Shown: positions 15,146 to 64,000, numbered from the stretch's first letter. The stretch is DNA of 64,000 nucleotides from an uncultured Verrucomicrobiae bacterium (GCA_963718565.1 OY970364.1:192001-256000); one strand, 5' to 3'. Numbers and translations are program-made. Notes: generated by a model not told the origin, from the letters alone.

Positions 15146-15520
15146 TTAGGGAATAAACTCTCTTTTCTTCGCCCAATATGCAAGCATTCCGCGCCGTGCT
15201 GCAGCTCTACTTTTATCTTTGCCTTCCTGAGTTTTTGCCCCTGTTGATAGGCCTCCATGCATTCGACAACGGCCATTAATGGGTTCTCCTGTTTTGGGGT
15301 CCACCACGACCTTAGCTTTGCAAGAACGGCCACTTCGGCACTTGGCACCACATAAAGGCCGGTCCTTTTTCCACAAACTTTCGTTTTTCCAATGAGCCGA
15401 ATGATAAATATCTAACATCTGAGCTTTTCTGTGATTGGAATAACTCCATGGCTCCCAAGGTTTATACTGCCAGGATCTAACCATAATTCCCTTCCATTGA
15501 TAAGAATGGCTTACCACCAA
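15146..15520 (-). CDS. HGGxSTG-domain protein
   Basis: CGAKCRSGRSC...GRCRMHGGLSTGAKTQEGK. Confidence 0.85.
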   Translation of the reverse strand: MVVSHSYQWKGIMVRSWQYKPWEPWSYSNHRKAQMLDIYHSAHWKNESLWKKDRPLCGAKCRSGRSCKAKVVVDPKTGEPINGRCRMHGGLSTGAKTQEGKDKSRAAARRGMLAYWAKKREFIP

Positions 15521-15726
15521 TAATGTCCCGCTTCTCTGGCCATTATTTTGAATTGGTCATCTTGCTCTCTGTGTTTTTTCATCGCTTTAGATGCCCTCTC
15601 TTTTGCTTTATCATTGCCTTTTTCTTTGGCTACAAGCCACCGCCTAACATAATCCATATACTTACATGCTCTTTGATTTTTGAGCGCCTCAACCTTCTCA
15701 AAATCATAAAAGTCATACTTGTCCAT
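15511..15726 (-). CDS. small hypothetical protein of element A
   Basis: GGAG RBS; overlaps HGGxSTG gene; charged and helical. Confidence 0.6.
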   Translation of the reverse strand: MDKYDFYDFEKVEALKNQRACKYMDYVRRWLVAKEKGNDKAKERASKAMKKHREQDDQFKIMAREAGHYWW

Positions 15727-15796
15727 TTTGGTTCTCCAATTTTATGCACCATGGCTGCGGTGCTGCTTTCTCCTTATTTCTCTACTCAACTCCCTC

Positions 15797-15869
15797 GCTA
15801 AAGTTGCTAAACTGCTAAAGCTTCATGGCCTTAGATAAAAAATCCTTAGCAGATTAGCAGGTTTAGCAG
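15797..15869. repeat. origin-like repeats: GCTAAA x3, spacer, TTAGCAG x3
   Basis: Three direct copies then three inverted copies at the 3' end of the primase gene. Confidence 0.6.
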
Positions 15870-18202
15870 CTCTCCATATTTTGTGGAGGTTTAATCGTCC
15901 ACGCTTCCTTGCATTTTTTGTCATTGATGACGAGATTTGGAGTGGGGATGACCCACCCATGGCTTGCAAGGATGGACATGATCGTTCGAGCACGGTCGGC
16001 ATTCCTGATACCAAGAGAGAGGGGGCCATATTGGTAAATCGTGCTGAGTCCAACCTGTTTGTAGTTTTCTTTCCATAACCACTTGAGTAAGGAGGCTGCA
16101 CAAACGAGCTCTGGATTGATCGAGACAAATCCATGAATGCGTAGTCTCTCTGTGAAATAGAATTGGATAAGAATGATTGCTCTTTGGATGTACTCAGAGC
16201 TAATTTCTTCTACATCGGGATTTTCAATAAGTGCCAGAGTGCCGCTAAGCCGTAGAACATGTTCGGGTGCTTTACTGGCGAACCGGCGAATTGGGTGATA
16301 TGGTTTCCCCTCTGCCAGATCCTCTTCGTTTTTGTTATGAAAAGCGATCCAAATCTTTTTGGCATCGCTGCTTAGAGGGAGAAGGATTGGTGAGATTTCA
16401 TTCTTTGGATCAAGAGGTGAATTTTCCTTGGCATTCGCATCCAACAGGCGATTCATTGCGTCATTGAATCGTTTGATTGCGGGATCCGCAGAGAGATCTT
16501 CTTCGACATAGGCTCGACTTCCAGCCATAGACTGAGGAAACACAATCAGACAGCGAGGTAGGAACCCTTGCAAATCAAAGATGGGGTTACTCAGGAGTTG
16601 GCTGAGAACCACTTCTTGCATCATCAAGTGGAGAGAAAGTCTTTTTCCATAGAGGAGCATGTCACCATCGCCAGCCCTCATCCACGAAATTTCTTTACCA
16701 TCCCAAAGAGACGATAGCCCAGCCAACGTTTTTAATAGGTTGTCGCGATTCATAGCGTGCCCCCCAAAGAATCTTCCTCCCTCATCGCTAAACAAACCGA
16801 TACTAGGTTGGCCATCTGCAGAGAAGTATTTAACGATACCTTCGTAGGTGGGCTCTTCAGCAAGAACTAAGGGACGCAGGGGAGGTGCGGGAGGCGGTTC
16901 GGAAAAAGTCGAATCTGAGGAAGCACTTTTGATCCATTCTTTCTTCCTCGCTTCCCAGGCTTCCTTGTGGATCTGGAATTTTGGGTATTCTGTTCGATAG
17001 CAATCAGCTAACATTTTCTGCCAGGAGAATATCGGCTTTAAAGCTATTTTATCCGTGGCGCTCTTTCGATCCCCTGACTCTGCAATAGTGAGATAGAACT
17101 CCGAAAGAGGATTTTCTCGACCGTCGATGGTAATGTTTGCATGGGCTTGAGTTGCAAGTGAAGTTGCCGCTAGAACGCTCTGGGCGCATATGCTATCCGG
17201 TGCTTTGATAACTCTATGCATCGCTTGTGCGGCAGATCCGAGAATGGGGCCTAGCGCATCCATTGGAAAAGGCTGAGGAGATCCTATTTGACGATAGAGG
17301 GGAAGAGGGTCCACTGGACAATCACTTTCTATTCCTAGAAAAGTGATCAGATCACGGACTGTTTTCAATTCGCAATGCTTATGGAAACATTTAAATCCAT
17401 GGTCCGGATAGCCATTTGTGTTCGGTTCGTAATATTTTGTGCCTGTGTCTTGTTGGGAATGAAGCTGTGCCCATGGACATCGGATGCTCCAACATCCCTG
17501 TGGATGCGATTGTTTTTGGAGCAGCATCCCATGACGTTCGAGTGCTTCTAGAACAGGGTTATTTTTTGCCGATTCATTTGTGGAAATAGATGGCGTTGGG
17601 TTGGGAGAAAGTGAGATCCCAAACGCATCCAGGAATTGTTGTAGAGAAAAGGGTTGTTTGCCACTCTCTTGGATGATTTTAGTGAGAAAGGGATCTTGTT
17701 TTTGGTGGAGGAACCCAGGAAGACGCATGACCCTAGCAAGATCATGTACTTGGGGATCTCCCTGAAAAAAGCCGATTAGCTTTTTTTGGATGAGGGAAAA
17801 ATGTTGCAGTTCAATGCCTTCAACAACCCAATAAGCATGAAATCGACTGGGACTCGATTCAACGATGATGTGAGGAGATAAAGGAGCCGAAAAGATGGGT
17901 TCAAGAGGACTTCCATCAAGGTCGACAAAGACTGCTGTGACCTGAGTGATATTCTCTGTTTTGCGCCCTTTTCCATCGGTTTGATTGATTGTGACGAAAA
18001 TGCCCGCTCCCTGCTCTTGAAGTCGTATAAAATTGTTTGCGAATTCATCGAGTGTCCCGCAGAGAACTTGGGGCTTGACTAGCGTTTCGGAATTTTTCCG
18101 ATCGTTAAAGATTTGGAAGGCAAAAATAGATTCCTCATCCCGTGAAAGATGGCTTAAGAATCTTTTTGCCGTTGTGAGATCTTGCGAGTTATAATGGGTC
18201 AT
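15863..18202 (-). CDS. RepB'-type primase fused to DUF3987 helicase-like domain
   Basis: VFVDLD, VESSPSRFHAYW, RVMRLPGF; CPW...CFHKHC Zn motif; AESGDRKS, DEGG, GFLPRCL. Confidence 0.85.
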   Translation of the reverse strand: MTHYNSQDLTTAKRFLSHLSRDEESIFAFQIFNDRKNSETLVKPQVLCGTLDEFANNFIRLQEQGAGIFVTINQTDGKGRKTENITQVTAVFVDLDGSPLEPIFSAPLSPHIIVESSPSRFHAYWVVEGIELQHFSLIQKKLIGFFQGDPQVHDLARVMRLPGFLHQKQDPFLTKIIQESGKQPFSLQQFLDAFGISLSPNPTPSISTNESAKNNPVLEALERHGMLLQKQSHPQGCWSIRCPWAQLHSQQDTGTKYYEPNTNGYPDHGFKCFHKHCELKTVRDLITFLGIESDCPVDPLPLYRQIGSPQPFPMDALGPILGSAAQAMHRVIKAPDSICAQSVLAATSLATQAHANITIDGRENPLSEFYLTIAESGDRKSATDKIALKPIFSWQKMLADCYRTEYPKFQIHKEAWEARKKEWIKSASSDSTFSEPPPAPPLRPLVLAEEPTYEGIVKYFSADGQPSIGLFSDEGGRFFGGHAMNRDNLLKTLAGLSSLWDGKEISWMRAGDGDMLLYGKRLSLHLMMQEVVLSQLLSNPIFDLQGFLPRCLIVFPQSMAGSRAYVEEDLSADPAIKRFNDAMNRLLDANAKENSPLDPKNEISPILLPLSSDAKKIWIAFHNKNEEDLAEGKPYHPIRRFASKAPEHVLRLSGTLALIENPDVEEISSEYIQRAIILIQFYFTERLRIHGFVSINPELVCAASLLKWLWKENYKQVGLSTIYQYGPLSLGIRNADRARTIMSILASHGWVIPTPNLVINDKKCKEAWTIKPPQNMESC

Positions 18203-18266
18203 ATCCGTTCCTGTATGTTAGAGCCGTTGAGTTTGCCAACCGACGGCTCGAGTTTATTTTTAGTGT

Positions 18267-18464
18267 TCATCTTCTTGCCTGTTTTTCGAGCCAAGCGATG
18301 AAGAGATCCCTGCGGACTAGTACTTTTCTCCCAACGCGACGAAGTGCTGGTGCAAGTCCGTTACGATGGGCATGGAGGATGTAGTACCTGAGCATCGGTA
18401 CCGTAAAACAAAAAGTGGGATCCGAAGCGATCTGCTTCACTGTGCAATATGTTTGATCAGTCAT
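18267..18464 (-). CDS. small Xis/AlpA-like DNA-binding protein (element A)
   Basis: LRYYI...NGL...RRVGRKVLV...FIAWLE; similar to 30593 and 50683; AGGAG RBS. Confidence 0.75.
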   Translation of the reverse strand: MTDQTYCTVKQIASDPTFCFTVPMLRYYILHAHRNGLAPALRRVGRKVLVRRDLFIAWLEKQARR

Positions 18465-18618
18465 GATCAGTTCTCCTGAGGTTAGAAGCCTAATTCGGCT
18501 TTGTTAATAAACCCCAGTATTAGGCAGCACAAAGCCAGGCCGATACGCAGTAAAAAACGGGTGATCGGAAAATTTGGAATAGAAATCGATTTAACTGACT
18601 AAGCTAGAATCTTATGTG

Positions 18619-20061
18619 TTAAGATTTTCGTGGAAGATTAGAGGATTTCTCAACTAGCTGACGCTTGAGTTCTTGAAGTGAGATGGGGTCATGGTAAATT
18701 GGAATAGGATTTTCTCGCTGATCCCGCAGATGTTTTGGAAGCATTCTCAAATTCTTATGAGGGTGCGGGAAAAGAAGGAATGCTTCCGGTAAAGCAGGAG
18801 TATTCCCATGAGGAAGGATTTTTTCAGAGGCTCGTCTGAATCGTTCTGCAAGATTATCCATGGTCAGATTTGGAAACAATTTTTGTGGCCTTTTCAAAGG
18901 TTGATCTCCGATGTATTCCTTCAATAAATCAGCTAGCCCTTCCGAGTGCTCTATTTCTTCGTCATCTATCAGAAGTCCATTTTGAATAACGTCCTCTGTC
19001 GTCACTTCCAAAAGCCGCTTGATGGAATAGGAGCGAGTTCCATTTTGCGAAATGTAGACCATGATCCAAAGCAGCAGAACAATTTCTCCTTCGATATCAT
19101 GGTCTAAGGGATCTGCAATGAATTGATCAGCAAAGTGAAGGATATATTTCCCGAATGTATTTCGGTCAATTGCATAGCCCGATTTCCATCGAGAGGTAGA
19201 GGTAGTTTGTTGTTTAGATTGTTTAATTGAAACGAGCCCTTGCAGAAGGATCTCTTGCTTTTCCACACTCCATGTGACCCCCGAAAAAATCAGCTTACGA
19301 AGTTGGATCTTCCATAGTCTTTGAAAGTCCATGAAATCTCGCCTTTTTCCAGCAGTAATCGAATGAGACACCTGGCGGTAGGCTTCAGCCACGGAGATGC
19401 CTCCTTTGGGAGCAAATCTCTGGTTTTCTAGCGTTCTTCTTCTCACTTTGAGATCTTGCTTGAGATATTCTTTTATTGTTTGTAGATAATGGTAGTGCGC
19501 CCTTTGATGGAGATTCCGCATTACTGGTTCGAGATCTTTAGAATATTCATTAACAGCGCATAATTGATTGATCAGAGTGTGAGCTTTATTTTCTTTTTCG
19601 TACCATTCGATCCATTTGGACATCTCGGCTTTAGAGGCACAGAAGAGGAGCGCCTCTAATTTCTCCTCTTCGAGCTTACGAAGATTCTCCTCGGGGGGGA
19701 CGATTTGAACAGCCCAGGGTATATGCCAAATGACTTTTTTTGCTTCAGAGGGAAAGCAACGAATGCGACATTCCGGATAAAAGCGAGGGGTGAAAACCAT
19801 GCTGATGAGAGGAGCTGATGTGGCGGCCTCTCTTACCTTTTCATTGGGCGAGAATCTCTGTAAAACATATCGGTGGGTCTCCATCATGGTCTTTAATGCT
19901 CTTTCTGACATAAGCGGACGCCCAAGGATCAAATAAATTTCGGAAAAGAAAAAGTAAAGAACATTGGATTTTTCTGCGACCTTGGCATGAAAGTCTTCGA
20001 GATTTTGCAAGAGGGATCTGATCCCTCTCGCTAATTTTTGGTGTTTAGTCAGCGCCATCAT
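18619..20061 (-). CDS. hypothetical protein; C-terminus resembles a degenerate tyrosine-recombinase fold
   Basis: 480-aa ORF overlapping the integrase stop; G-T-R...LLEV..EDV...LLKEY...KLFP pattern. Confidence 0.6.
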   Translation of the reverse strand: MMALTKHQKLARGIRSLLQNLEDFHAKVAEKSNVLYFFFSEIYLILGRPLMSERALKTMMETHRYVLQRFSPNEKVREAATSAPLISMVFTPRFYPECRIRCFPSEAKKVIWHIPWAVQIVPPEENLRKLEEEKLEALLFCASKAEMSKWIEWYEKENKAHTLINQLCAVNEYSKDLEPVMRNLHQRAHYHYLQTIKEYLKQDLKVRRRTLENQRFAPKGGISVAEAYRQVSHSITAGKRRDFMDFQRLWKIQLRKLIFSGVTWSVEKQEILLQGLVSIKQSKQQTTSTSRWKSGYAIDRNTFGKYILHFADQFIADPLDHDIEGEIVLLLWIMVYISQNGTRSYSIKRLLEVTTEDVIQNGLLIDDEEIEHSEGLADLLKEYIGDQPLKRPQKLFPNLTMDNLAERFRRASEKILPHGNTPALPEAFLLFPHPHKNLRMLPKHLRDQRENPIPIYHDPISLQELKRQLVEKSSNLPRKS

Positions 20062-21166
20062 CTACTCCTGGCGATGGATCTGAGGCGATGATCTCGCTCA
20101 AATTGGTTGTATTGACCAATTTCTCATAAACTTTTGTCGTCAATTGTTGTACGCTGGCTGCATCTGGATGGCAGTAACGAAGCAGTTGAGACAAAGTTCT
20201 GTGGCCTGTGGCGGCGGATAATTGAATATTAGAAGTTCCTGATACAGAAGCTATTGTAGCAAAACAGTGCCTCAAATCATGCACGCGGAAGTCTTCGATC
20301 GTTGCTTCTTTTAAAGCTTTTTCCCAAGGCTTGCGCAAAGTCAACTGACCAAAACGGGTTTTGCTTGCGAAAACCAAGGATTTTTCTGGATGCTTTTTGG
20401 CGAATAGATCCTTAAGCATTTCCAGTACATCACCAACGATGGCCAAGACACGTGGGCGTCCATTTTTTGTGCTTTTCAAATGGATCAAACCATTTTCAAG
20501 ATCCACTGCGTTCCACTGTAGACTCAATAATTCGCCGCTTCTTGCACCGGTTGTGAGAGCCAAAATGACGAATGGGAGAAGCAGCCTGTTGAAACTTTTT
20601 GCACATGCTTTCAGTAGACGCGAGCACTCATCAGGAGAGAGAGTTCGGTTTCTGCCCTCTGCTTCCTTAAGCTTTTTAACGCGGGACATTGGATTTGATG
20701 AAATCCACTCACACTCTTTCACTCCATGGCTTAGGACGGCTGAAAGAGAAGCAAGGTAGCGATTGACGGTAGCCTCAGTGCGCTTCTTTCCTTTTGGAAG
20801 AACTTCATCAAGGAGTTCCCTCCGGTGTCTTGAGATGAGATCTGAAGAAACATGGTTGAGAGTGAATTTCCCCAGTTTCAATTTCCACCAGTTGAGATGG
20901 CGGAGCACATCTTCTGCACTTTTGATGGAGGGAAGAATATCTTGAATGTAGCGGTCGATAAGCTCAGCTAAAGTGTGCTTTTGTCTGCACTTCTCAGGAA
21001 AGTACAGACCTTGTCTTCGCTTTGCCTCTTCCTGAATTGCCCAGTCTTTAGCTTCCTGATGTGTTGGAAAAGTTTTATATTGGATTGGAAGCCCGTCATC
21101 AGGACGGATCATGACGCGGTAGCTGTTAGTACCGTTTTTATTTTTTCTTTTTTGTATTGTTGCCAT
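20045..21166 (-). CDS. tyrosine integrase (element A)
   Basis: GARSGE, TKNG, HDLRH, GH, RY catalytic set; N-terminal arm-binding YRVMIR. Confidence 0.95.
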   Translation of the reverse strand: MATIQKRKNKNGTNSYRVMIRPDDGLPIQYKTFPTHQEAKDWAIQEEAKRRQGLYFPEKCRQKHTLAELIDRYIQDILPSIKSAEDVLRHLNWWKLKLGKFTLNHVSSDLISRHRRELLDEVLPKGKKRTEATVNRYLASLSAVLSHGVKECEWISSNPMSRVKKLKEAEGRNRTLSPDECSRLLKACAKSFNRLLLPFVILALTTGARSGELLSLQWNAVDLENGLIHLKSTKNGRPRVLAIVGDVLEMLKDLFAKKHPEKSLVFASKTRFGQLTLRKPWEKALKEATIEDFRVHDLRHCFATIASVSGTSNIQLSAATGHRTLSQLLRYCHPDAASVQQLTTKVYEKLVNTTNLSEIIASDPSPGVDDGAD

Positions 21167-21330
21167 CTGTTCATCTCCATTTGTGGTTTACGTGAACAGA
21201 CAGTTCTGATGGGATGAGCTGACACGCATAAGATGTCAGCGTGCCGTATAAGTGCCATAAGGTAAAATGTTAAGTGAAAAATTCACATAACTTTCATTCT
21301 AACTTATTGCAGAACAAGCACTTAAAAATG

Positions 21331-21377
21331 TGGGGCAACCTGGACTTGAACCAGGGACCGACGGGTTATGAGTCCGC
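21331..21377 (-). repeat. att site: 3' half of tRNA(CAT; Ile2 or Met), A/B junction
   Basis: Reverse complement GCGGACTCATAACCCGTCGGTCCCTGGTTCAAGTCCAGGTTGCCCCA: anticodon loop, T arm, acceptor 3' strand; no 5' half. Confidence 0.9.
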
Positions 21378-21603
21378 TGACGCCCGCGCCACTTCCCAGC
21401 AGCTAACTCCCCGAAATCATAGCGGAAAGCACCCCTTTCCATCCATCGCAAACTATCGCCATTTATCGCCCTTTTTTGTATGCCAGTGGTCCACAAATGG
21501 TCCACAGACAAAAAATTGAATTCTATGAATGGGCTTTCTTGTATATGATGAATACCCTTAACGAGAGCTAAATATTCGAACCGGGAAAACGAGGGACTAG
21601 CGC

Positions 21604-24600
21604 ATGAAATGGGTACTCAATTTAATCAGCTTCCTACTGTGTTTACAGGGTCTGGAAGCGTCAACTAGCCAAGTGTACCTAGGATCGCGCGAAAGTGATC
21701 CAGCAAGTTTAGTAGAGAATGTGAGTACCATCCATGGCGATTATACAGAGGTTGAAGTTGATCTTACTGTTTCATCTCCAGATTCTCTAGTTTTATCTAG
21801 GTTCTATAGCAGTAGAGACACACTCCAAACAGCTAATTTTGGTGGATGGCGTTTTAATCCTCACTGCTTTCTTTCTATTCAGAAAGATCCGAAAGGAAAA
21901 TCCTATACAAGCGCTGAAGGAAAGTTCGAGCGCACTTATGTCTATGTCGGCAATCCTGATGGAACAATCCTGACCTATGTCGGCTGGCAGAACACTACCA
22001 ACCCCTCCAAGAAGTCCCTATTTAAAATTGATCCGGAAGGGGAGGTAGCAGGAATAGCGAATACAGCGAAGGGAACCATCAGCTGCTGGACAAACCTGAA
22101 AAATAACGAACTCTATTTTGATCCCCAAACGAATGGTTTTGAACTGCTTCTCTGTTCAGAAGGAAAGCGTTCTTATAGTAAACATCCTTCCCTCGATGTC
22201 TATTTTATCACGCAAGAAGTCCTTCCGAGCGGTAATAAAGTCTTCTATGAGTTCGATGAAAAAGGACAGCTCTCTTTCATCAAAGAAACCAACGCTTCAG
22301 AGAAGAAGGTGTTGGCTTGGATTAAAATTGAATATAGAAATGGGATTCACATTGAGACAAGCGACGGAAAATCCGCTGAATATCATTTCCAGCAAGATTC
22401 CTCAGGCGCAATGCTCTTAAGCGAGGTGATTAGGTCTCATAAGCCGAGCTTATCCTACCAATACCAAGTTGTGGGCAATCAAGCTCTTTTGACTAGAAAA
22501 ACTCTGCCTGAGGGACGTTTTGTCCAAATCGACTACTCCACTGATAAAGGGCAGAAAAACAAAGTTAGATCTGTGACTACCCCAGCTGGATCAGGAGGAA
22601 TGGCAAACGTCTTATTCTCCTATGGAGACGATTACACAGAAGTCGATGGTCCTGGAGAACGCAAGGCAGTATATCGATTTGATGATGATTACCAGCTCGT
22701 TGCTGTAGAACAATGCCTAGATGGATCTCCTTATCGGATTCACAAAAAGTCATGGGGGACAAAGAGCGATGCTGGAAACTTGATCTCTACATCTGTCGAA
22801 GACGCGGGTGGCAACATTTTCTACTACAAGCACTTCACTTATGATAGCAAAGACAAAGGAAATATTGTTGAAGAAAGAGAATATGGAGACGTCATAGGTT
22901 TAGGGGCCATCTCTTTGAATGTTGATGACAGTGGCCTTGTCACAAATCAAGATGGACACATCAAGAATTATGCCTATTTCTCTGGCAAAAACACTCATGG
23001 TTTTTTCCAAACAGATGCCAAGGGAACTGGAGTCAAATATTGGTACAAGAAAGGGACTAATCTTCTCCTGAAAAAGTTCATTTTGACAAAAGGGTCCCCT
23101 GATTCGGAAGAAGAAGACTATAGATCGGGCATAAAAGAGAGACATTTTTATGCCTATAACGATGATGCTGCTCTCATTCAGGTTATCGTCGATGATGGCA
23201 AAGAAGGACCCCTCAAAGACGATTATGGGGTTACCGAAAGGACTGTCACTCGCATTTCTCCAAAGCAAGAGCTCCCTAATGTCGGAGCGCCTGAAGTAGT
23301 TGAACAGAAATACAGCTCTACAGATGGGAAATCGGAATTTCTCCTAAGAAGAACTGTCAATCAGTTCGATGGACAGGGGAACATCGCTTCCCATGCCATT
23401 TATGACGCAGATGAAAACCATTGCTATACGCTTACCAAGGGATATGAACGTGGACTACTTGTTTTTGAGACCGATCCTCTTGGGAATGAGACGCATTACT
23501 CTTACGATGGGAATCAAAATCTGATCCTTGAAACCCACTCAGACACCGGCATTTCTATTGAATATGGCTATGATTTAAGAAACTTTCCTATTTACACCCT
23601 GGAGAAAGACCGAGCAGGGAATCGATTTGGAACACAAATCAGCTATGACCCCGCAGGACACAAACTCTCGGAACTCGATCGATATGGGAATGAGACGATC
23701 TATACTAATGATTCTCTGGGACGTCCCACCCAAATTACCTATCCAGAAGCCAGCGATGGTACTCGTTCTTCTGTAAGACCCACATACACTTATACCTACG
23801 ACCTATTTGACAATCCTATCTCTGTCACAGATCCAAAGGGAAGGACACTTGTAAGATCTTACAACGTCCATGGAAAGCCAATCGAGATCAATCATCTCAA
23901 TGGAACCAAAGAAGTGTTTAGATACGATAGCGGAGGGAATCTCCACCACTACTATGGCACGGATGGCCTTCTGCAAGTGTTTGCTTATGATTACAAAGGA
24001 AGATTAAACAAGCTCGAGCACTTTAAGAGGGGAAGTAAGAGCTCTAATTATGCCTTCAAGGAAACAACTTGTAGCTATGGAGCCTTCCATAAAACTTCGG
24101 AAACTGATGCCAGAGGTGAGCAAACAACCTATACTTATGGTCATTCAGGACGTCTAGCATCTTTGAGTAAAGACAAACAGAAGGTCGAGTTCATCTATGA
24201 CAGTCTTGGAAGAACTCGTGGAGTCAAAAAGTGGAAGTCTGCCAAGACCTTCACCTTGGACATCAAAGAATACGACCTTTTAGACAGGGTTATTGAAGAG
24301 CGTACCGAAGATCAAACAGGCAAAGTGCTACTCAAAAAAAGGTACGTCTACAATGATGCAGGGCAGATTACTCAAGTGATCGGCTATCCGCAGAATAAAG
24401 AAAGTATCTTACTCAAATATGAATATGATGGATTTGGTCGTCTTTACCAGGCAACCAATGCTGCAGGGCATACATCAACTATCGAGTATGATGACGCTTT
24501 TGTTAACGAATGGGGTCAAAGAACATGTAAACGTACTCTGATTGACCCGATTGGCAATCAGACCGAAGAGATCTTTGATATAGACGGTCGATTGATCAAA

Positions 24601-53095: not shown

Positions 53096-53142
53096 TGGGG
53101 CAAGCAGGACTTGAACCTGCGACCAGCGGGTTATGAGTCCGC
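53096..53142 (-). repeat. att site: variant tRNA(CAT) 3' half, C/D junction
   Basis: 41/47 identical to the other two copies; compensated T stem GCAGG/CCTGC. Confidence 0.88.
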
Positions 53143-53273
53143 AGCACCCATGCTACTTCCCAGCAGCTAACTTCCCGAAATCATAGCGGAAAGCGCCCCT
53201 TTCCAGCTACCGCGATCTATCGTCATTTATCGCACTTTTTTGTATGCCAGTGGTCCACAAATGGTCCACGGAA

Positions 53274-54644: not shown

Positions 54645-54646
54645 TT

Positions 54647-56080
54647 TTATCCCTTTGCGATGTGCTTTGCCAATTGGCTAAAAATAAGAGCATGAAACGG
54701 GTAAAGACTATACCAATAAAACCTACCCCAGACTCCATTGGGACGAAAAGAGGCTGTTTGTTTCAGAGTCCCTCCTGTTTCATGAGGGATGATCTCAAAT
54801 TCAAGCCACGCTTCACCTGGCAATTTCATTTCAGCATAGAGAAGCAAGCGTCGATTTTTTTCATCTGCTAACAAAACGCGCCAGAAATCGAGAGCGTCTC
54901 CTACTTTTAGCCGCGTCGGATGAGTTCTGCCTCGGCGCAGCCCAATTCCTCCCACCAATTTATCCAGAAAACCCCTGAGTTTCCAAGCCCAATTCATTGC
55001 AAGCCAACCCCGATCTCCGCCTAGAGACCAAATCCGTTTTTGCACTTGTTCTATAGGACAAGAAAAAGGAATGATCCGTCTATCGCTCAAGATGCCGAAT
55101 TTAGGAACGTGGACATAAATGGAAAGATCGGGATTTAAAGCGGAGCCGCTTAAAGTATCTTTCCAGCTTGAAGGTACCCAATCTTCTTCGGTACGGGTAA
55201 AAGCCAGTTGCAGCGCCTCTTCATAAGAGAGTAGTTTTCTAGGAAAAAGCGTTTGAATTCGGTTTTCTTTGCAAACCGCATTATTAATGAGACTTTCGAC
55301 TAGGAAACGGGCAAGTGAAAAGCTTGTGCTAGTCACAAAGAAAAGCCAGTAGGAGGAGAGGCGCGGTGTAAGAACGGGAACCGTAAAAATTTTCCGCTTC
55401 AACCCCCGCATTTTAGCGAAATTTAATAGAAGGTCTTTGTAGCTCATGACATCAGGTCCTCCGATCTCAAAAGATTGACCAAAGCAGGCAGGATTGCCCA
55501 AAACAAGCGTCAGATAAGCTAGAACATCGCTTATGGCGATCGGTTGGGTGAGCTGCTTAAGCCATTTTGGGGCAATCATAATGGGCAGTTTTTCAACCAA
55601 GTCTCGGATAATTTCAAATGAAGCACTTCCTGAACCGATGATGATTCCAGCCATTAAAATAGTCACAGGAACTTTTCCTTCTCGGAGGATTTCTCCTACC
55701 CTTTTTCTCGAGGTTAAATGACGGGAAAGATGGGCTTCATTTGAGAGACCGCTCAAGTAGATGATTTGTTTCGCTTGTGTATTTTCCAATCGACTCACAA
55801 AATTTTTTGCTGAAGCAGCTTCTAATTCGGAAAATTTTTGCGAATAACTCATTGAATGGACTAGATAGTAAGCTACATCGATATCATCCGGAATCTTTAG
55901 CAAAGAGGAAGGATTAAGGAGATCAGCTTCAATGACATGAAGTTGAGATTGAAATTTCTCGGGAATTTCAATTCGAGAACGGCTTCTTACCAGGGCATAG
56001 ATCTCATGCCCCTCCTCTACCAAACGAGGAAGAAGGCGAGTTCCAATATACCCATTAGCTCCAGTAAGTAAGATTTTCAT
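54647..56080 (-). CDS. SDR/NAD-binding protein with DUF2867 (YbjT-like)
   Basis: TGANGYIG, YYLVHSM, GSGSASFE, GDALDFWRV, AEMKLPGEAWL. Confidence 0.9.
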   Translation of the reverse strand: MKILLTGANGYIGTRLLPRLVEEGHEIYALVRSRSRIEIPEKFQSQLHVIEADLLNPSSLLKIPDDIDVAYYLVHSMSYSQKFSELEAASAKNFVSRLENTQAKQIIYLSGLSNEAHLSRHLTSRKRVGEILREGKVPVTILMAGIIIGSGSASFEIIRDLVEKLPIMIAPKWLKQLTQPIAISDVLAYLTLVLGNPACFGQSFEIGGPDVMSYKDLLLNFAKMRGLKRKIFTVPVLTPRLSSYWLFFVTSTSFSLARFLVESLINNAVCKENRIQTLFPRKLLSYEEALQLAFTRTEEDWVPSSWKDTLSGSALNPDLSIYVHVPKFGILSDRRIIPFSCPIEQVQKRIWSLGGDRGWLAMNWAWKLRGFLDKLVGGIGLRRGRTHPTRLKVGDALDFWRVLLADEKNRRLLLYAEMKLPGEAWLEFEIIPHETGGTLKQTASFRPNGVWGRFYWYSLYPFHALIFSQLAKHIAKG

Positions 56081-56092
56081 AGTCTACTCTGG

Positions 56093-57130
56093 CTAAGGGG
56101 TTAATATCACTTTCAACGCTTTTTGTTCAGCAGCATGACCAAAGACTTCATAAGCTCGCATAGCATCTGCTAAGGCAAAATGATGAGTGATCAACTTCTC
56201 TGGCTGTAGTTGATCATTTTCGACGAGACGCAATAAATTAGGGATAGAAAAGGTATCTACTAGAGCTGTCGTGAGAGTTATATTTCGATCCCAAAGTTTT
56301 TCGAGGTGTAAGTCCACGCTTTTTCCATGGACGCCAATGTTCGCGAGATAGCCTCCAGGAGCGAGGATCGCTTGGCATATGTTAAAGGCTTCGGGGGTGC
56401 CGACTGCTTCTACTGAAACATCCACCCCTTTTTGGCGAGTGTGTTCTAAAATCTTTAGCACAGCTTTCCCGTCTCTCCCGTTGATAGTTAGGGTCGCTCC
56501 TAGTTTTTTGGCTACCTCTAAGCGAAAATCATCTACATCCACCAAGATGATTTGGCTGGGAAAGTAGAATTGGGCTGTCAATAAAACGGCTAAACCTATT
56601 GGCCCTGCGCCTATAATCGCGACAGTATCGCCCAATTTTATTTGTCCCTTTAAAACTCCTGCTTCGTAGCCCGTTGGGAAAATATCGCTCAACAAGACAA
56701 GTGCTTCCTCATTTAGATGCGGAGGGAGCTGATGAAGGCTTGTGTCAGCGTAAGGAATGCGTACATATTCAGCTTGGGTTCCATCAATGCGGTGTCCGAG
56801 CAGCCATCTTCCATCAGAACAGTGGGAGTACATTTTCTCTTTGCAATGAGCGCAGCGTCCACAAGAAGTAATGCAAGAAATAAGGACTTTATCTCCTATT
56901 TTAAAATCTAAAACTCCTTCTCCAATTGCTTCAATAACGCCGATTCCTTCATGTCCCAGTGTGCGGCCTACGTCAACTGTAGGGACGTCGCCTTTACAGA
57001 TATGAAGATCTGTGCCGCAAATCGTTGTTTTCAAAATTTTCACAAGGCAGTCTGTCGGTTTTTCAAGGCGGGGTTTAGGCTTTTCTTCGAGGGCGAGTTT
57101 CCCAGGACCACGATATACGACTGCTTTCAT
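56093..57130 (-). CDS. zinc-dependent alcohol dehydrogenase
   Basis: TICGTDLH, GHEG, CGRCAHC, GAGPIG. Confidence 0.93.
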   Translation of the reverse strand: MKAVVYRGPGKLALEEKPKPRLEKPTDCLVKILKTTICGTDLHICKGDVPTVDVGRTLGHEGIGVIEAIGEGVLDFKIGDKVLISCITSCGRCAHCKEKMYSHCSDGRWLLGHRIDGTQAEYVRIPYADTSLHQLPPHLNEEALVLLSDIFPTGYEAGVLKGQIKLGDTVAIIGAGPIGLAVLLTAQFYFPSQIILVDVDDFRLEVAKKLGATLTINGRDGKAVLKILEHTRQKGVDVSVEAVGTPEAFNICQAILAPGGYLANIGVHGKSVDLHLEKLWDRNITLTTALVDTFSIPNLLRLVENDQLQPEKLITHHFALADAMRAYEVFGHAAEQKALKVILTP

Positions 57131-57158
57131 CTTTTTACTTCCTATAAGTCGAGTGGAT

Positions 57159-59776
57159 TCATTTTCTTTGAGCCTTTGTATGCTTTTTATTTTTCAGAAT
57201 TTCCTGCTCCGCTTGTCTCCAATCCTGATCCGCTAGACCGTCCTGGTGGCCTCGCTGCTCATATAGTTCGTAGGCGCGTTTAGAGATCTGTGAGGTTAAA
57301 TCAGAGGATGTCATGGATTTAACTGGATCAAAAATCCGATAGGCAAGCCATTTTACTTGATCATTTAGGAGGAACCATACAATGGCATAGCCCCAAACAA
57401 AACCGGCCCATTTCCAGCCTAGAGGAGTCATAAGTAGCCCATAAACAGCAATCAAAGTCGCTATCATTTGCGTGCCGAGGACTGCTCCCCATAAAATATT
57501 TGCAGGTCGGATAGTCCAGAACGGACCCCGAGTACGCGTCAGGAAAATCGTCAGGTGCCCGGCTACGGATAATTTCAAATACATCAGCGTTTGGATATGT
57601 GGACGGTCAAGATGAAAGACGCGCTCGCCAAGATAAAATAAACCGAAGGCAGACACGACGCCGATGAGGCCCAAGGCTGTGGCAACCCCAAGCACCATCT
57701 TCATGTTCCATCCTTCAGGCTGATTCTTATAGTGAACATTGTCATAGGCAATAGATAGAATGGCGCCGTCGTTGAGCAATGCCAGCATCACGATCATCAC
57801 AGCTGTCAATGGATAGAAATTAAAGATCAGAATGGCCAGCGTCATGAAAAACAGCACGCGCAGCGTCTCGGCAATCCGATAGATCGCGTAGCTGTTCATT
57901 CGTTGAAAAATTTTTCGGCTCTCCTTGATCGCATCAATGATTACAGAGAGGCCTGGAGTTAGCAACACAATGGCCGCTGCCGCGCGCGCTGCGTCCGTCG
58001 CGCTTGAAACAGCGATGCCGCAGTCGGCTTTTTTCAGTGCAGGAGCGTCATTCACTCCATCGCCCGTCATACCAACGATATGGCCTCGTTTTTGCAGGAC
58101 ATCTACAATATGAAACTTGTGTTCAGGAAACACCTGGGCAAAACCGTCAGCCTTCTCGATCGACTCGGCAACTTGAGCTGTCTCTTGCTTCTTGACATCG
58201 CCAAGGCCGGTAGCATCGAGAATGTCTGTGCCCATTCCTAATTTTTTAGCAGTTTCCTTGGCAATGGCCAGTTGATCACCCGTGACCATCTTGACTTTCA
58301 CACCCATTTGAGTTGCGGTCTCAATGGTTGCCTTAGCATCTTCTCTCGGTGGATCGAACAGGGGTAATACGCCAAGAAACTGCCATCCTCCCTCTCCATC
58401 TGCCGGGCTACTCCAAGCGATCGAAATCCACGTGCTGCGAATTCATTGACGGCTTTTTCAACTTCAGCTTTTACTTGGGCCGCATTAGCCGATAAGGCCA
58501 AAATCACTTGAGGCGCCCCCTTGGTCACCTTGAACTCTTTACCATCCTGGCCTTTGATAACGGCTTCGGTCCGTTTATGCACCGCATCAAACGGCTGAAA
58601 ATGGACCATTTGATAACCCTTCAATGCATCTTTATTTTTTAAACCGCCCAAAACAGCGAGATCAATGGTGTCGTTATTTTCCGCGCGCGATGCAAGAGCG
58701 GCATAGAGAATCACTTGCTCAGCGGGGATATTATTTACGCTGAACGGATCGCCGAGTGTTAGCTTGTTCTGGGTCAAAGTGCCGGTCTTGTCCGCACACA
58801 GGATGTCTACGCCTGCCAACTCCTCGATAGCCACGAGCCGACTCACAATCGCTTGTTTTTTGGCGAGCAAGCGAGCCCCGACCGCCATTGTTACAGACAA
58901 TACCGTTGGCATTGCTACGGGGATCGAAGCAACGGTCAGGACTAAGGCAAACTGCAGCGTGGTGAGGATCGGATCTCCTCGGAAGATCGCAACGGTTATG
59001 ATTCCCGCAACCAAAACGCCTGCGAGAATGATCAGATAATTGCCGATCTTCAAAACCGCTTTTTGAAAATGACTAACTGTGTGCGCTTCTTGTACTAGTT
59101 GTGCCGTTTTACCGAAGTAGGTATTCATACCGGTTCCGTAGACGAATGCTTCGATTTCTCCTTGCCGGACAATCGACCCTGAAAACACCGACTCTCCAGA
59201 TTTGCGTGTGACAGGCAATGATTCTCCCGTCAAAGCAGACTGATCTACTTCGACAGGATCGCCATCTAGAAGCTTTGCATCCGCAGGTACAATGTCGCCC
59301 GAGCGCAATCGGATAACGTCTCCTGGAACCAACTCGCGTGCCGCCGGAGTGATCCACTTTCCATCGCGCTTCACTCGGGCCTTGACCGCAAGCTGGGCTT
59401 TCAGGGCAGCAATAGCGCCTGCTGCCTTATGTTCTTCCCAGAATCCGACTACTGCATTGGCAAGAAGTAAAAGGAGAATAATGAAAAAATCTGGCCAGTG
59501 GCGAACCACGCCGGATAGAATCACCGCTATTTCAATCATCCATGGGATAGGTCCCCAAAAATAGCTAAGAAATTTTAGAAATAGATTCGTTTTCTTTTCT
59601 TCGATCTCGTTAGACCCGTATTGAGTCAGCCGTTTTGCCGCTTCAGCTTCAGTAAGGCCATCAGGAGAGAATCCCAATTTTTTCTTAACCTCTTCCAGAG
59701 AGAGGGATTTTAGATCCTCATTCGCATTGGGATTTTTCAATACTGGAGCTTTAGGTTTATCGGCATTAGGTTCCAT
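57159..59776 (-). pseudogene. P-type IIIA proton-efflux ATPase with DUF2934-like tail; frameshift near 58403
   Basis: DKTGTLT, TGES, KGAPQ, GDGVNDAPALKKA; adding one base gives VARADGEGGWQFLGVLPLFDPPREDA. Confidence 0.88.
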
Positions 59777-62146
59777 TATTTAAAGTTACCCCACTTCCAA
59801 TTCCGGATTTCCGGCATGTCTTGACCGTGCTTGTCGATGTAGTGTTTGTGTTCGATGAGCTTGTCCTGCATCATCTGTTTGAGATAGGCCCCCTTAGCTC
59901 CCAAATTCGCTAGCCTGTCGATCACGTCTTGCACTAGATGAAAGCGGTCCAGGTCATTCTGAACCCGCATGTCAAAAGCTGTGGTGATTGTACCTTCTTC
60001 CTTGTAGCCTCGAACATGCAGATTTCTGTTGGTTCGGCGATACGTTAGTCGGTGGATCAGCGTGGGATATCCATGGAAGCCGAAGATGATGTGCTTATCT
60101 TTTGTAAAAAGAGAATCGTAATCCATCTCAGAGAGGCCGTGCGGATGCTCGCTTTGGGACTGGAGCTTCATCAAATCGACGACATTGACCACACGGATTT
60201 TCAGATCGGGCAGATGCTCGCGGAGGATGGAAACGGCAGCCAAGATTTCCAGTGTGGGTGTATCTCCGCAGCAGCCCATCACTACATCAGGCTCGGCATC
60301 CTGGTCGTTGCTAGCCCATTGCCAGATGCCAATTCCTTCTGTGCAGTGCACAACTGCAGCATCCATAGTCAGCCATTGAGGGAGAGGGTGTTTGCCCGCA
60401 ACTACCACATTGACGTAGTTGCGGCTGCGCAAACAGTGATCAAATACCGACAAGAGGCAGTTGGCATCAGGCGGCAGGTAAACCCGCACAATAGTAGCCT
60501 TTTTGTTGATCACGTGGTCGAGAAATCCGGGATCTTGATGCGTAAAGCCGTTATGATCCTGCTGCCAGACGTGAGAGGCGAGCAGGTAATTCAGGGAAGC
60601 GATCTTCCGGCGCCAAGGCAATTCTAAGCACACTTTCAGCCACTTAGCATGCTGGCTAAACATCGAATCGACAATGCGGATGAACGCCTCATAACTATTG
60701 AATAGACCGTGCCGCCCGGTCAGCAGATATCCTTCTAACCAACCTTCGCACTGGTGCTCGCTGAGCATTGAATCCAGCACTTGCCCTGCGGGTGCGAGGA
60801 ACTCATCACTATTTACTTCCCTCGCATCCCACTGACGGTTGGTGACTTCAAAGACGGCGCCCAAGAGATTCGAAAGCGTCTCATCTGGCCCGAAGATCCG
60901 AAAATTCCGTTGATCCTGATTCAATTTGGCTATGTCACGCAGAAAATTTCCCAATACGAGAGTATCTTGACCCTCAACAGCACCAGGCGCTGGCACATTG
61001 ACTGCGTGTTCATGAAAGTCCGGCATGCGCAAATCACGCAGCAGCAGACCGCCGTTGGCGTGAGGATTCGCTCCCATCCGCCGGTTACCTTTCGGCGCCA
61101 GTTCAGCCAATTCCGGTATAAGCTTTCCATTCTTATCAAATAATTCTTCTGCTTTGTAGCTCTTCATCCAGCTTTCAAGTTGCTGGACGTGCTCAGGATG
61201 CTCGGGGTTTACTAGAATCGGTACCTGGTGCGCTCGAAACGTGCCTTCAATTTGCAACCCATCGACGATTTTAGGCCCTGTCCAGCCTTTAGGCGATCTC
61301 AGGACAATCATTGGCCATCGCCGTCTTGTGGTGTCGTTTTTACTGCGTGCATTGTCTTGGATTTGGTGAATGTCTTCGATTGCCTTTTCCATAGACGCAG
61401 CCATGAGTTGATGCATCAACTCCGGTTCACAGCCTTCTACAAAGTAGGGCGTCCAGCCGCAGCCTCGTAAAAATTGCTCCAATTCCTCATGCTCGATGCG
61501 AGCCAAAACGGTTGGGTTGCTGATCTTATAGCCATTGAGGTGGAGGATTGGCAGCACAGCTCCATCAGTAATGGGATCGAGAAATTTATTGGACTGCCAC
61601 GCTGTTGCCAAAGGACCTGTTTCCGCTTCGCCGTCGCCAATGACACAGGCGACAATTAGATCGGGGTTGTCAAACACGGCTCCAAAGGCATGGCTAAGTG
61701 AATACCCCAGCTCGCCGCCTTCATGAATCGACCCTGGAGTTGTTGGGGCAACATGGCTGGAAATTCCGCCTGGAAACGAGAATTGCTTGAACAGCTTTTG
61801 CATTCCCGTTTCGTCTTGGCTGATATCCGGATAAATCTCACTATAGGAACCTTCGAGATATGTATTGGCTACGAGAGCCGGACCTCCATGGCCGGGACCT
61901 GCGATGTAAAACATATTCAGATCATATTTCTTGATCACCCGGTTCAAATGCACATAGATGAAATTCTGGCCTGGCGTTGTTCCCCAATGTCCGACCACGA
62001 GGGGCTTCACATCAGACAATGAATAGCGGCCGCTTTAGCAATGGATTATCGTAGAGATAAATCTGACCTACCGATAAATAGTTGGCGGCCCGCCAATAGG
62101 CATCCATCCTATGAAGTAGTTCTGGTGAAAGAATATTTATTGTCAT
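59776..62146 (-). pseudogene. xfp: phosphoketolase; frameshift near 62022
   Basis: [16 protein letters not shown] lies in another frame from [27 protein letters not shown]. Confidence 0.9.
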
Positions 62147-63356
62147 GGCTCTACTTCCTTTGTTCCAAGACCTGAGAGCGCGGCAAACCGTCTTGGCTAT
62201 CATCCATTCTTCGTCCGTACGAATGACGCGAACCGCAACGCGGCTCTTGCCGGAAGAAATTACACCCTCATTCGCACTGTTTTGCTTTTCTTCGAGTTCG
62301 ATTCCAAGAAATTCCAGGCCTTTGCAAATCCTAGCCCGTACAATAGGTGCATTCTCTCCGATGCCGCCAGCGAACACTAGCGTATCCAGACCACCTAAAG
62401 CCGCTGCGAATGAGCCAATCCATTTCTTAACCTGGTAACAGAAGAGCGCTATAGCTTCAGCAGCCCGCACGTCCTTTGCTTCAGCTTTCAGCAAGTCATG
62501 CATGTCGGAACTGGTCTCCGATATTCCGAGCAGTCCGGACTTGGAAATTGACCATTTCATTGAAACGTTTTGCATCGAATCCATCGGTACGCGCCAAATA
62601 CCAGACCAGTCCAGGATCGAGATCGCCAGAACGGGTGCTCATCGGCACCCCGGCAGTCGGCGTGAAACTCATACTTGTATCTATGGATTTGCCGTCTCGT
62701 ACGGCTGCTAGGCTCGCGCCATTCCCAAGGTGAGCAAGAATGACTCGGCCTTGTGCCGCTTCTAATCCTGCAAGGCGGCCTAATTCCCCAACAAGAAACT
62801 CGTACGACAGCCCATGAAACCCATATCGTCTCACCCCTTGCGTTTCAAAGCGTCGCGGGATCGGCAACATTTTAGCCACGCGAGGCAGGTCATGATGAAA
62901 AGCAGTATCGAAACAAGCCCATTGGGGCAAATCAGGAAACCTACGATGAAACGCCTCAACGAGCAGGATCTCCTCCGGCATATGTTCAGGATCAAAAGAC
63001 TCGAGGCTGTGCAGATCTTCAATCATTTTTGAAGTGATTCGCTCCGGTTTCCAATACTTCGGACCGCCATGCACCATGCGATGCCCTACCGCAGCCAATG
63101 CATCGTGCTGACTGCGCTGCTCGATCCAATCCATTAGGAAGCCCACTGCTGCTGTATGATCTGTCGCCGCTATCGGTCTTGAGAAATTGTCCGCCGGGTT
63201 TACACCCTTCACTCGCAAAGCAGCGTCAGGCAATCCAATCCGCTCGATTGTGCCTTCTAGAATCCGTTGAAGAGAGTCATCCACTTCAAACAGCGCAAAC
63301 TTGATGCTCGAAGAGCCGCCATTGATCGTCAGGACGCGCGATTTAGCTGGTTTCAT
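62143..63356 (-). pseudogene. ackA: acetate kinase; frameshift near 62543
   Basis: INGGSSSIK, GHRMVHGG, FDTAFH, YGFHGLS, HLGNGAS; SGLLGIS and FAGGIGEN in second frame. Confidence 0.9.
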
Positions 63357-63987
63357 GGATAGCTCCTTCGTAATTATGCAATCCAAACGAAGCTAATTTC
63401 GTACAGGTGGATTTATAATCTGTGTGAAGAATGCTTCGAATCCCCAGCCCTTCAGCGATCTCGACAAACATCGGGGTGTTTTCAATATAGAGCACCTTTT
63501 GAGGCTCCGCTTGAGCGATATCCAACGCAAGCCGAAAAATTTCCTTGTCTGGTTTGCGGATGTGGACGAAGCAGGAAGAAATAAAAGAGTCTATAAAGCG
63601 ATTCAGCTTGAACGTTCGAATCCGATACGCATTTAGTTCTCGCGCTTCGTTGCTAACCACAACGATTTTCAATCCATGCCGAACCTTGAGTTGAGTAACC
63701 ATCTCGATCATCTCAGAATAAGGTTTCGATTGCGCGAACATAAAACGTCGAAACTGAGCCCGAGTGAACGATCGCTTTTGGTAGAAGACCACTAGATTTA
63801 AATATTCTTCTAGAGTGATCTTTCCTTTCTCATAGATTTCGAAGATTAGGTGATGCCGATCTTCTATATCGGAAAACTTGAGTTTGAAGTGGATCGCTGC
63901 CCGTTTGCGGGCATGATGATCCCATCCGTTAGTGAGCAGGACGCCGCCGATATCCAGAAATAAGTGTGTGATTGCCGCATTTTTCAT
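63343..63987 (-). CDS. HAD-family phosphatase
   Basis: FLDIGGVL, SNE, KPDKEIF. Confidence 0.9.
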   Translation of the reverse strand: MKNAAITHLFLDIGGVLLTNGWDHHARKRAAIHFKLKFSDIEDRHHLIFEIYEKGKITLEEYLNLVVFYQKRSFTRAQFRRFMFAQSKPYSEMIEMVTQLKVRHGLKIVVVSNEARELNAYRIRTFKLNRFIDSFISSCFVHIRKPDKEIFRLALDIAQAEPQKVLYIENTPMFVEIAEGLGIRSILHTDYKSTCTKLASFGLHNYEGAIHETS

Positions 63988-64000
63988 CGCGTTTTTCTTC

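Follow-up and report, generated by a model that had tools for sequence, protein, structure and literature searches.

Tandem accretion of integrative elements at tRNA genes is an established class of genome organization. Among the 3919 islands of the Islander survey, Table 1 of that paper counts 125 tandems with at least two islands and just 4 with at least three (PMC4383910). The tandem arrays described there have an intact tDNA at the end, co-oriented 3' fragments and a separate tyrosine integrase for each island, and the 'anticodon-centred' class of attachment sites in the same source has a block of identity that runs from the anticodon stem to the 3' end (PMC4383910). Here we analyze a 64,000-nucleotide (nt) stretch (hereafter, the window), namely, bases 192001-256000 of the single 2,284,058-bp contig OY970364.1 (window coordinate = genome coordinate - 192000), which resembles both descriptions. 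We conclude that the window belongs, very probably, to an accretion array in which at least six distinct integrative elements were serially inserted into one single-copy tRNA(CAT) gene. Set against the arrays of the Islander survey, this one consists of six delimited elements and an apparently decayed seventh segment, and comes from the phylum Chlamydiota. Judged by that 2014 survey, it is a textbook case of accretion that is unusually long, among the longest of the clearly delimited examples; no paper on stacked tRNA(CAT) islands in chlamydiae was found among the open-access papers searched.

The tycheposons of Prochlorococcus, as described in the preprint, likewise combine a tRNA-targeting tyrosine integrase with a primase/helicase and adaptive or defense cargo, and are likewise stacked, with partial tRNAs in between and the older elements pushed inward and decaying (10.1101/2020.12.28.424599). 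Unlike tycheposons, the elements analyzed here reside in a different host phylum and at a different tRNA, are larger and rich in insertion sequences (IS), and include a type (alpha) with a second integrase cassette; unlike the PICI-like (phage-inducible chromosomal island-like) subtype of tycheposons, they yielded no capsid or terminase genes in the open reading frames (ORFs) scanned here. The comparison indicates that the array works like tycheposons. In Dehalococcoides, repeated site-specific integration at one small-RNA gene, ssrA, produced islands separated by direct repeats of its 3' end; unlike the array described here, these islands target tmRNA and carry reductive dehalogenase genes (PMC3146451).

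We treat the host as an uncultured environmental chlamydia (Parachlamydiales) because the nearest relatives of the array integrases come from metagenome-assembled genomes (MAGs) labelled Simkania, Parachlamydiales, Chlamydiae and similar. The genome is 95% complete, with a GC content of 43.6%; that of the elements is 40.6-45.2%, so that they are not marked by composition. Gene gain by intracellular environmental chlamydiae is poorly understood, and here about 5% of a 2.3-Mb genome amounts to a single integration hotspot.

Seven co-oriented copies of a tRNA(CAT) 3' half

With up to 12 substitutions allowed, the 47-nt 3' half of the tRNA matches the 2.28-Mb genome, searched in full on both strands, at just nine places, so the copies are not due to chance. 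Seven of these share one orientation between genome positions 165060 and 271626 (165060, 169583, 184048, 213331, 230600, 245096 and 271580, all on the minus strand), and the last one is part of an intact tRNA(CAT) gene 15.6 kb to the right of the window, one of the three tRNAs with a CAT anticodon in this genome and unique in sequence (Table 1). All six fragments lie on the same strand as this tRNA and differ from its 3' half at 0-6 of the 47 positions; over this whole length, there is no difference between the copies at 213331, 230600 and 271580. Within the window, the first two copies are 100% identical over as many as 52 nt (21326-21377 and 38595-38646), and the third one (53091-53142) is 88% identical to them. 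Together, the seven copies delimit six elements of 4.5-29 kb, denoted E1-E6, that total 106.6 kb, or 4.7% of the genome.

The original prediction, made from the window alone, recognized three of these copies (at 21331, 38600 and 53096), noted that no 5' half accompanies them, and proposed a stack of at least four elements, A, B, C and D (E3, E4, E5 and E6, respectively), with the intact tRNA and the integrase of D to the right of the window. The copies are indeed there, as are the tRNA and the integrase; the array is real as well, and four was an undercount. The far end of A, which had been placed to the left of the window or else deleted, corresponds to the copy at 184048, located 7.95 kb outside the window on that side and followed by two more elements.

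The block of identity begins at the 5' strand of the anticodon stem, which would fit an anticodon-centred attachment site. The copy at 53096 differs at 6 of the 47 positions, and four of the differences are compensatory changes in the T stem. Two T-stem types, both of which keep base pairing, occur in one genome with a single such tRNA, which speaks for copies brought in by the elements. The T-arm variants were considered as a clock or as a marker of the crossover and were dropped, because T-arm type failed to track integrase clade in 34 loci.

No tRNA 5' half is present inside the window. ARAGORN calls two 'tRNA-Met' there, at 21330-21398 (69 nt) and 53095-53162 (68 nt), and both of these short calls are a 3' half fused to the arm of the next element (alpha class; see below). 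In Rfam, the 53095-53162 call scores 34.7 bits and the 21330-21398 call falls below the threshold, compared to 69 bits for the intact gene. A similar junction is found at L010:12047-12114, and the scores of such junctions, 30.9-34.7 bits, are barely over the 29-bit cut-off. Called as tRNA-Met, they would inflate tRNA counts in automatic annotation.

Two orphan 3'-half copies are located far from the array, at genome 860161-860339 (L012) and 1647549-1647590 (L013). One of them continues into a far arm of the alpha class, which shows 86-92% identity to the arms of E3, E4 and E6, and the downstream flank of the other resembles that of E2. These orphans may be translocated pieces of the array or insertions at secondary sites.

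Integrases of the array

Tyrosine integrase genes start 122-169 nt downstream of five of the six upper copies, and the sixth, that of E2, is present as well, spread over three frames, aligning over the full length of the 356-aa integrase of the related genome G005. The intact minus-strand integrase that had been reported after each window copy is full-length in all three cases (373, 363 and 367 aa, 128-164 nt away). The seven intact integrases (the six terminal positions minus E2, plus two internal copies) constitute one family (Pfam PF00589, E-values from 7e-26 to 2e-35), with pairwise identity of 37-80%, and 95% for the two internal copies. In the alignment, R218, K243, H305, R308, H331 and Y340 (363-aa numbering) are invariant in all seven, and we take these residues to be the catalytic set of tyrosine recombinases.

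The best relatives in other genomes are 92% identical for E3 (G007), 91% for E4, 88% for E5, 96% for E6 and 74-90% for E2 (G005), compared to at most 80% for the best paralog in this genome; E1 is the exception, with 58% abroad vs 57% at home. Because five of the six integrases are more similar to counterparts from other genomes than to any paralog here, the stack was evidently built by separate arrivals, not by duplication.

We fetched 80 related integrase loci from other genomes, 44 of which show, upstream of the integrase, either a called tRNA(CAT) or the anticodon core (core in 35, tRNA(CAT) in 22, both in 13). In the 34 closest relatives (at least 60% identical) with a recognizable 3' half, this half lies 129-189 nt upstream of the integrase gene. 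Distant proteobacterial relatives (41-53% identical) adjoin tRNA-Thr, Asn, Lys or Leu. Throughout the order, members of this integrase family occupy the same tRNA, which outlines a concrete route of gene flow among these bacteria, and the natural pairs of integrases and attachment sites could be tried as genetic tools in a group that is poor in them.

Outside the array, the genome encodes three more full-length integrases of the same family, 41-47% identical (genome 692480-693529, 2117412-2118440 and 958878-959882). The neighbor of one of these is the other elongator-type tRNA(CAT), that of another is tRNA-Phe, and the remaining one is located at a distance of about 6 kb from the tmRNA gene. 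Three integrase fragments are found elsewhere, and the genome contains several more islands of the same kind.

Element ends and the extent of the array

Five of the six elements carry a matching short direct repeat on the integrase-side arm and the far arm: GTGGTCCACAAATGGTCCAC in both E4 and E6, a TGGTCCA pair in E1, GTGGTCA-N4-TGGTCAT in E5 and GCACCG-N5-GCACCG in E2. The last of these occurs three times genome-wide, and the third occurrence is beside a paralogous integrase at the other tRNA(CAT) locus. The motif TGGTCCAC is found 12 times in the array, out of 29 genome-wide, vs 1.6 expected, and 11 of the 12 are within ~170 nt of a copy. The matched repeats mark five of the six intervals as discrete elements independently of the tRNA copies, and they are likely candidates for the arm-type sites of the integrase N-terminal domain.

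To the left of the outermost copy (165060), an orphan arm sequence without a tRNA fragment (genome 145714-145824) resembles the far-end arms of E1 and E5. The DNA past the last 3'-half copy of the relative G006 encodes homologs of an outer-membrane protein and a GMC oxidoreductase from genome 143.2-145.5 kb (79-88% amino-acid identity, expected orientation), and the corresponding flank in G017 matches genome 129.0-129.9 kb. Given the orphan arm and these matches, the stretch from 145.7 to 165.06 kb appears to be a decayed seventh segment, E0, which would extend the region to ~126 kb, 5.5% of the genome. E0 lacks an integrase and is left out of the island count; it contains insertion sequences, a TOTE-type primase-helicase and a PDC-S27 ATPase. 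The array proper shows an intact tRNA at one end, co-oriented cognate fragments and a separate integrase for each island, that of E2 over three frames.

These features suggest a scenario of growth. Every attachment site would include some 47-50 nt of tRNA sequence, beginning at the 5' strand of the anticodon stem and extending to the acceptor end. Upon insertion, a working tRNA would be rebuilt beside the incoming integrase, with the previous 3' half staying as a scar at the far end of the element, and repeated insertion would push the older elements away from the gene. The putative backbone of an element consists of the integrase, a variable uncharacterized protein, a small excisionase-like protein and a primase-helicase or a winged-helix replication-type protein, followed by cargo. 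We infer the mechanism of recombination, the point of strand exchange and the replication of an excised circle.

Table 1 Elements and features of the array. Coordinates are those of the window unless given as genome positions.
Feature	Coordinates	Strand	Description and evidence
E1	4.5 kb, between copies at genome 165060 and 169583		
E1 integrase	beside copy at genome 169583		376 aa
E2	14.4 kb, between copies at genome 169583 and 184048		
E3 (A)	genome 184095-213330, 29.2 kb, between copies at 184048 and 213331		
Right 21.3 kb of E3	1-21330		at least 7 IS copies, RhuM/PDC-S05 gene, thiamine operon, E3 core; Pfam, PADLOC
Thiamine pyrophosphate (TPP) riboswitch, inside E3	8157-8253	+	Rfam RF00059, 73.9 bits
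Thiamine operon	behind riboswitch, to 15107	+	THI5/NMT1, ThiD, ThiO-like, ThiG, two ThiE, ThiF, AIR-synthase-related; Pfam
E3 core	15146-21166	-	HGGxSTG-domain protein (124 aa), RepB-primase/DUF3987 primase-helicase (779 aa), uncharacterized proteins of 65 and 480 aa, integrase
E3 integrase	20045-21166	-	373 aa; Pfam; 92% identical to G007 integrase
tRNA(CAT) 3'-half copy, E3/E4 junction	21331-21377	-	anticodon stem to acceptor end; identical to 3' half of intact tRNA
E4 (B)	17.2 kb, between copies at genome 213331 and 230600		
E4 far-end arm, alpha class	21378-21514		with GTGGTCCACAAATGGTCCAC; 86-91% identical to arms at genome 184095, 245143, 860208
E4 cargo slot 1	21604-27361	+	Rhs-repeat protein, 1832 aa; Pfam RHS_repeat 1.4e-32, DUF6531
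Cys-rich CPCC protein, after Rhs in E4	27384-27641		
int2 cassette of E4	28547-32001	+	int2 (378 aa), uncharacterized (240 aa), excisionase-like (97 aa), winged-helix (349 aa)
E4 cargo slot 2	32144-37327	+	GNAT protein, GrpB-APH-GNAT fusion, ABC exporter, APH-family kinase; Pfam
E4 integrase int1	37367-38458	-	363 aa; Pfam Phage_integrase 2.4e-32; 80% to E6 integrase, 91% to locus L041 from another genome
Arm-type repeat between E4 int1 and attachment site	38475-38526		GTGGTCCACAAATGGTCCAC; also on E4 far end
tRNA(CAT) 3'-half copy, E4/E5 junction	38600-38646	-	sequence match
E5 (C)	14.4 kb, between copies at genome 230600 and 245096		
E5 far-end arm, beta class	38647-38790		with GTGGTCATCCAGTGGTCAT; similar to arm at copy 165060 and orphan 145714-145824
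E5 body	38852-51874		Schlafen/AlbA_2, NUDIX, CoiA-like nuclease, tRNA-binding protein, GNAT, SAP, racemase; Pfam, PHROG, tblastn
E5 DUF927 primase-helicase	45143-48452		split by an IS
E5 homolog of 97-aa excisionase-like protein	50698-50868	-	tblastn
E5 integrase	51864-52967	-	367 aa; Pfam 2.1e-31; 88% to locus L101 from another genome
tRNA(CAT) 3'-half copy, variant type, E5/E6 junction	53096-53142	-	sequence match
E6 (D)	genome 245143-271579, 26.4 kb, between copy at 245096 and intact tRNA		
E6 far-end arm, alpha class	53143-53278		with GTGGTCCACAAATGGTCCAC; sequence similarity
E6, left 10.9 kb	53274-64000	-	photolyase, NAD-binding/DUF2867, alcohol dehydrogenase, split P-type ATPase, phosphoketolase, split acetate kinase; Pfam
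E6, right of window			AbiEi-like, CBASS cyclase + patatin, second int2 cassette, 1265-aa ZnF-helicase-methyltransferase, int1; PADLOC, Pfam
E6 integrase	genome 270343-271410		355 aa; 169 nt downstream of intact tRNA; same family
Intact tRNA(CAT), 75 nt	genome 271579-271653 (window-equivalent 79579-79653)	-	ARAGORN; Rfam RF00005, 69 bits

The same tRNA in related genomes

We searched 30 relatives for 3'-half copies downstream of the tRNA (the genus is represented by 18 other species genomes). Such copies are present on the same contig in seven of the 30: three in G006, two each in G013 and G017, and one each in G003, G009, G014 and G028, all lower bounds because island genes run past the last detected copy in G013 and G017. 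Where a relative has more than one copy, the spacings differ from those in this array. The contents at this tRNA differ as well: G007 carries an E3-like core, and the same block beside its tRNA(CAT) encodes proteins with 76-89% amino-acid identity to those of the E3 core; G005 carries an E2-like element; and the 10 kb next to the tRNA of G015 hold no member of this integrase family, with downstream genes that are not syntenic with the far flank seen in G006. Accordingly, as had been anticipated, the block is not colinear core genome: G007, G005 and G015 differ from it, and the copies in the other relatives are fewer or otherwise spaced.

Contigs from three other metagenomes switch partner exactly at 38641/38646, and one of these runs into the 5' half of a tRNA. 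The four metagenome runs that we compared contain related strains only and are uninformative on excision in this genome.

Serial insertion and its alternatives

Several observations weigh against serial insertion of simple elements. The comparison with relatives that the original prediction proposed did reveal different contents, and inspection of four relatives (G001, G005, G007 and G015), three of which carry an element, yielded no clean empty site. The search of public runs for a test stretch of this genome found none with half of it or more (the best one shares 0.37), and the runs are all stored as contigs. Excisionase-like genes were not recognized in E1 and not confirmed in E2 or E3. The T arms of three copies (165060, 169583 and 860161) are chimeric, with strands from different variants, which counts against the proposed scenario because a crossover purely in the anticodon loop does not predict them; such arms could have arisen by exchange in the T loop, through mosaic attachment sites or by conversion between copies. 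Furthermore, across genomes (34 loci), T-arm type does not follow integrase clade. Finally, the ends of E3 are mismatched, with an alpha-class (E4/E6-type) far arm vs GTGCC-N6-GTGCC at the integrase side. The latter motif is conserved in G007, and a second copy, which would mark the true far end of E3, was sought in the array and in the G007 locus, and none was found. Because the ends do not match, at least one interval is not a simple single element. The core of element A stands as originally drawn (15146-21330), and the whole E3 interval is probably a fusion of this E3-type core with the remains of an E4/E6-type element.

The probable composite nature of E3 bears on an alternative under which part of the stack formed elsewhere and arrived as a block via its outermost sites, so that fewer than six integrations took place here. 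The identity of the copies at 213331, 230600 and 271580 over 47 nt implies that composites like E4+E5+E6 could excise together, and relatives also carry multi-element stacks. Against this, none of the relatives examined has the same pair of neighboring elements, and we consider block transfer to be possible but rather unlikely.

An assembly artefact, in which strains with different single elements would have been chained via shared repeats of 47-180 bp, is far less plausible. In its favor, the genome looks like a metagenome assembly, given that its closest relatives are without exception MAGs; moreover, in other metagenomes the same integrase end joins different partners precisely where the core stops, a plain tRNA 5' half among them. 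However, this is a single 2.28-Mb contig and the repeats are just 47-180 bp long; independent assemblies (G006, G013 and G017) show two or three serial 3'-half copies on long contigs; and the distal elements look older, with a frameshifted E2 integrase, an E0 without an integrase and degenerate, chimeric terminal copies, a gradient that is expected of a real array rather than of chained strains. Local amplification, whereby one element was duplicated in place and the copies diverged or swapped cargo, is barely credible: E4 and E6 are related (80% identity of integrases, 92.8% of int2 cassettes and 88% of far arms), but even these two are closer to foreign copies (91% and 96%) than to each other (80%), the other integrases are 37-57% identical mutually, and five of the six are closer to foreign copies (88-96%; E2, 74-90%).

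Under serial insertion, the default model is that the element proximal to the tRNA is the youngest, which gives the order A, B, C, D of the original prediction. The gradient of decay fits this order, with degenerate distal copies, the frameshifted integrase of E2 and the lack of an integrase in E0. Conversely, long-read sequencing errors, instead of decay, could account for the frameshifts in the E2 integrase, ackA and xfp. Because any of the seven near-identical sites could have been the target, the order of arrival is not fixed.

A second-integrase cassette in the alpha-type elements

The two-integrase type of element is the most interesting thread of the array. The int2 cassette of E4 is 92.8% identical over 3.46 kb to the copy in E6 (genome 261977-265435) and is located on the strand opposite to int1. 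In 10 other chlamydial loci, the cassette was found as well, or just its first genes if the locus is truncated. The alpha-type layout with convergent int1 and int2 is common to E4, E6 and no fewer than four other chlamydial MAGs; in four other genomes, the two genes are separated by 6-15 kb on a single contig. Both ends of the cassette are sharp: a stretch of ~95 nt upstream of int2 hardly varies among 12 sequences and abuts at least five unrelated contexts, and the right end stops at the conserved GCGGAGCTAATAAAAA. The locus L073 combines the left neighbor of E6 with the right neighbor of E4. In two of the four metagenomes examined, the depth of the cassette is several-fold that of its flanks, and one 3559-nt contig is the cassette alone.

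The cassette has the full backbone of such an element. Its 240-, 97- and 349-aa proteins match no families from Pfam, PHROGs, PADLOC or NCBIfam, and Foldseek against PDB gave nothing at E <= 0.001 for the 97- and 349-aa models. Homologs of the 97-aa protein adjoin many integrases of the family, including the one in E5. The core of its model has a predicted local distance difference test (pLDDT) score of about 90, and the best structural matches in VIA-align are 2kvv (Z 5.3), Tn916 Xis (Z 4.9), RdfS (Z 4.6), Pukovnik Xis (Z 4.5) and GIsul2 Xis (Z 4.5); several of the top eight chains are excisionases, at Z-scores of only 4.5-5.3. The 349-aa protein contains an N-terminal winged helix in a poor model (mean pLDDT 59.8). 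ESM Atlas yielded HTH_36 and RepA_N as leads for it and nothing named for the 240-aa protein; for the 349-aa product, a replication initiator is a language-model lead only.

A nested element, a resolvase system and a cargo-exchange hinge are the candidate roles of the cassette. The near-invariant ends in unrelated contexts, together with the mixed neighbors in L073, fit an integron-like platform for swapping cargo. That the alpha-type elements run on two recombinases, with int1 docking at tRNA(CAT) and the cassette acting as a nested mini-element or a cargo-exchange hinge, is a speculative and, in our estimate, improbable proposal.

Beyond the right end of the cassette, E4 (32002-32130) and E6 (L011:9436-9560) share a promoter-like stretch, TTGTTAAT followed by TATGAT or TATAAT. 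This stretch faces the variable cargo, and the cassette may drive expression of the inserted genes.

Mobility and cargo

Satellites of the P4-like and PICI types encode an integrase, a small excisionase or AlpA-like protein and a primase-helicase, integrate at tRNAs and carry defense cargo. The array elements have the same order of backbone genes, except that no packaging-redirection, capsid, portal or terminase family was detected with Pfam in the 133 ORFs between genome 152 and 280 kb, and no packaging gene was detected with PHROG in 31 proteins; we know of no helper phage for these elements. The primase-helicases differ between elements (AAA_25 with a DnaG zinc ribbon in E2, RepB-primase/DUF3987 in E3 and DUF927 in E5), and several backbone proteins match no family at all. 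Nor is there a Pfam match to a relaxase or type IV secretion protein in the same 133 ORFs, so these are not recognizable as integrative and conjugative elements. Because the elements encode no transfer machinery, they would depend for their spread on a helper, such as a phage or a conjugative element, or on uptake of DNA inside a shared host cell.

The array holds most of the recognizable defense systems of the region, namely, Kiwa, type I restriction-modification, CBASS and several candidate systems. The cargo of E2 includes Kiwa (KwaA and KwaB), type I restriction-modification and PDC-S57; PDC-S02 nucleases are found in E1 and E2, and an AbiLi-like ATPase in E3. The cargo further includes a contact-toxin gene, possible antibiotic-modifying enzymes and the riboswitch-controlled thiamine operon. 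This complete-looking operon, flanked by insertion sequences within a mobile island, is an unusual cargo for an intracellular bacterium.

The E3 core was annotated with Pfam, PHROG and NCBIfam and also contains a 92-aa ORF on the plus strand. In slot 1 of E4, an 89-aa ORF starts 11 nt before the Rhs stop codon. The body of E5 additionally holds a 247-aa uncharacterized protein and three IS copies. In E6, the acetate kinase, the start of phosphoketolase and the P-type ATPase are each frame-split (window 57159-63386), because of either decay of the cargo or long-read frameshift errors.

At least 13 IS copies are present in the region, nearly identical to copies elsewhere in the chromosome; for those in E3, the identity is at least 99.5%. 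The IS-dense parts of the window are 1-7909, 41471-42806 and 46632-50530, with some IS nested. At least eight IS families are represented, each with ~8-20 near-identical copies genome-wide, including one with an IS607-like resolvase and TnpB.

Immediately upstream of the tRNA, this genome carries a guaA, guaB, purF, purN, purD and purE cluster (L011/L017, genome about 273000-287700). G005, G007 and G015 lack the cluster there; in these genomes, the tRNA region borders on homologs of the sequence from genome 287.7 kb onward. A dispersed repeat of 110-185 nt that resembles a miniature inverted-repeat element has ~70 or more chromosomal copies with 93-99% identity, one of which lies just upstream of the tRNA(CAT) region, to the right of the window (L011:16822-17003, genome 272822-273003).

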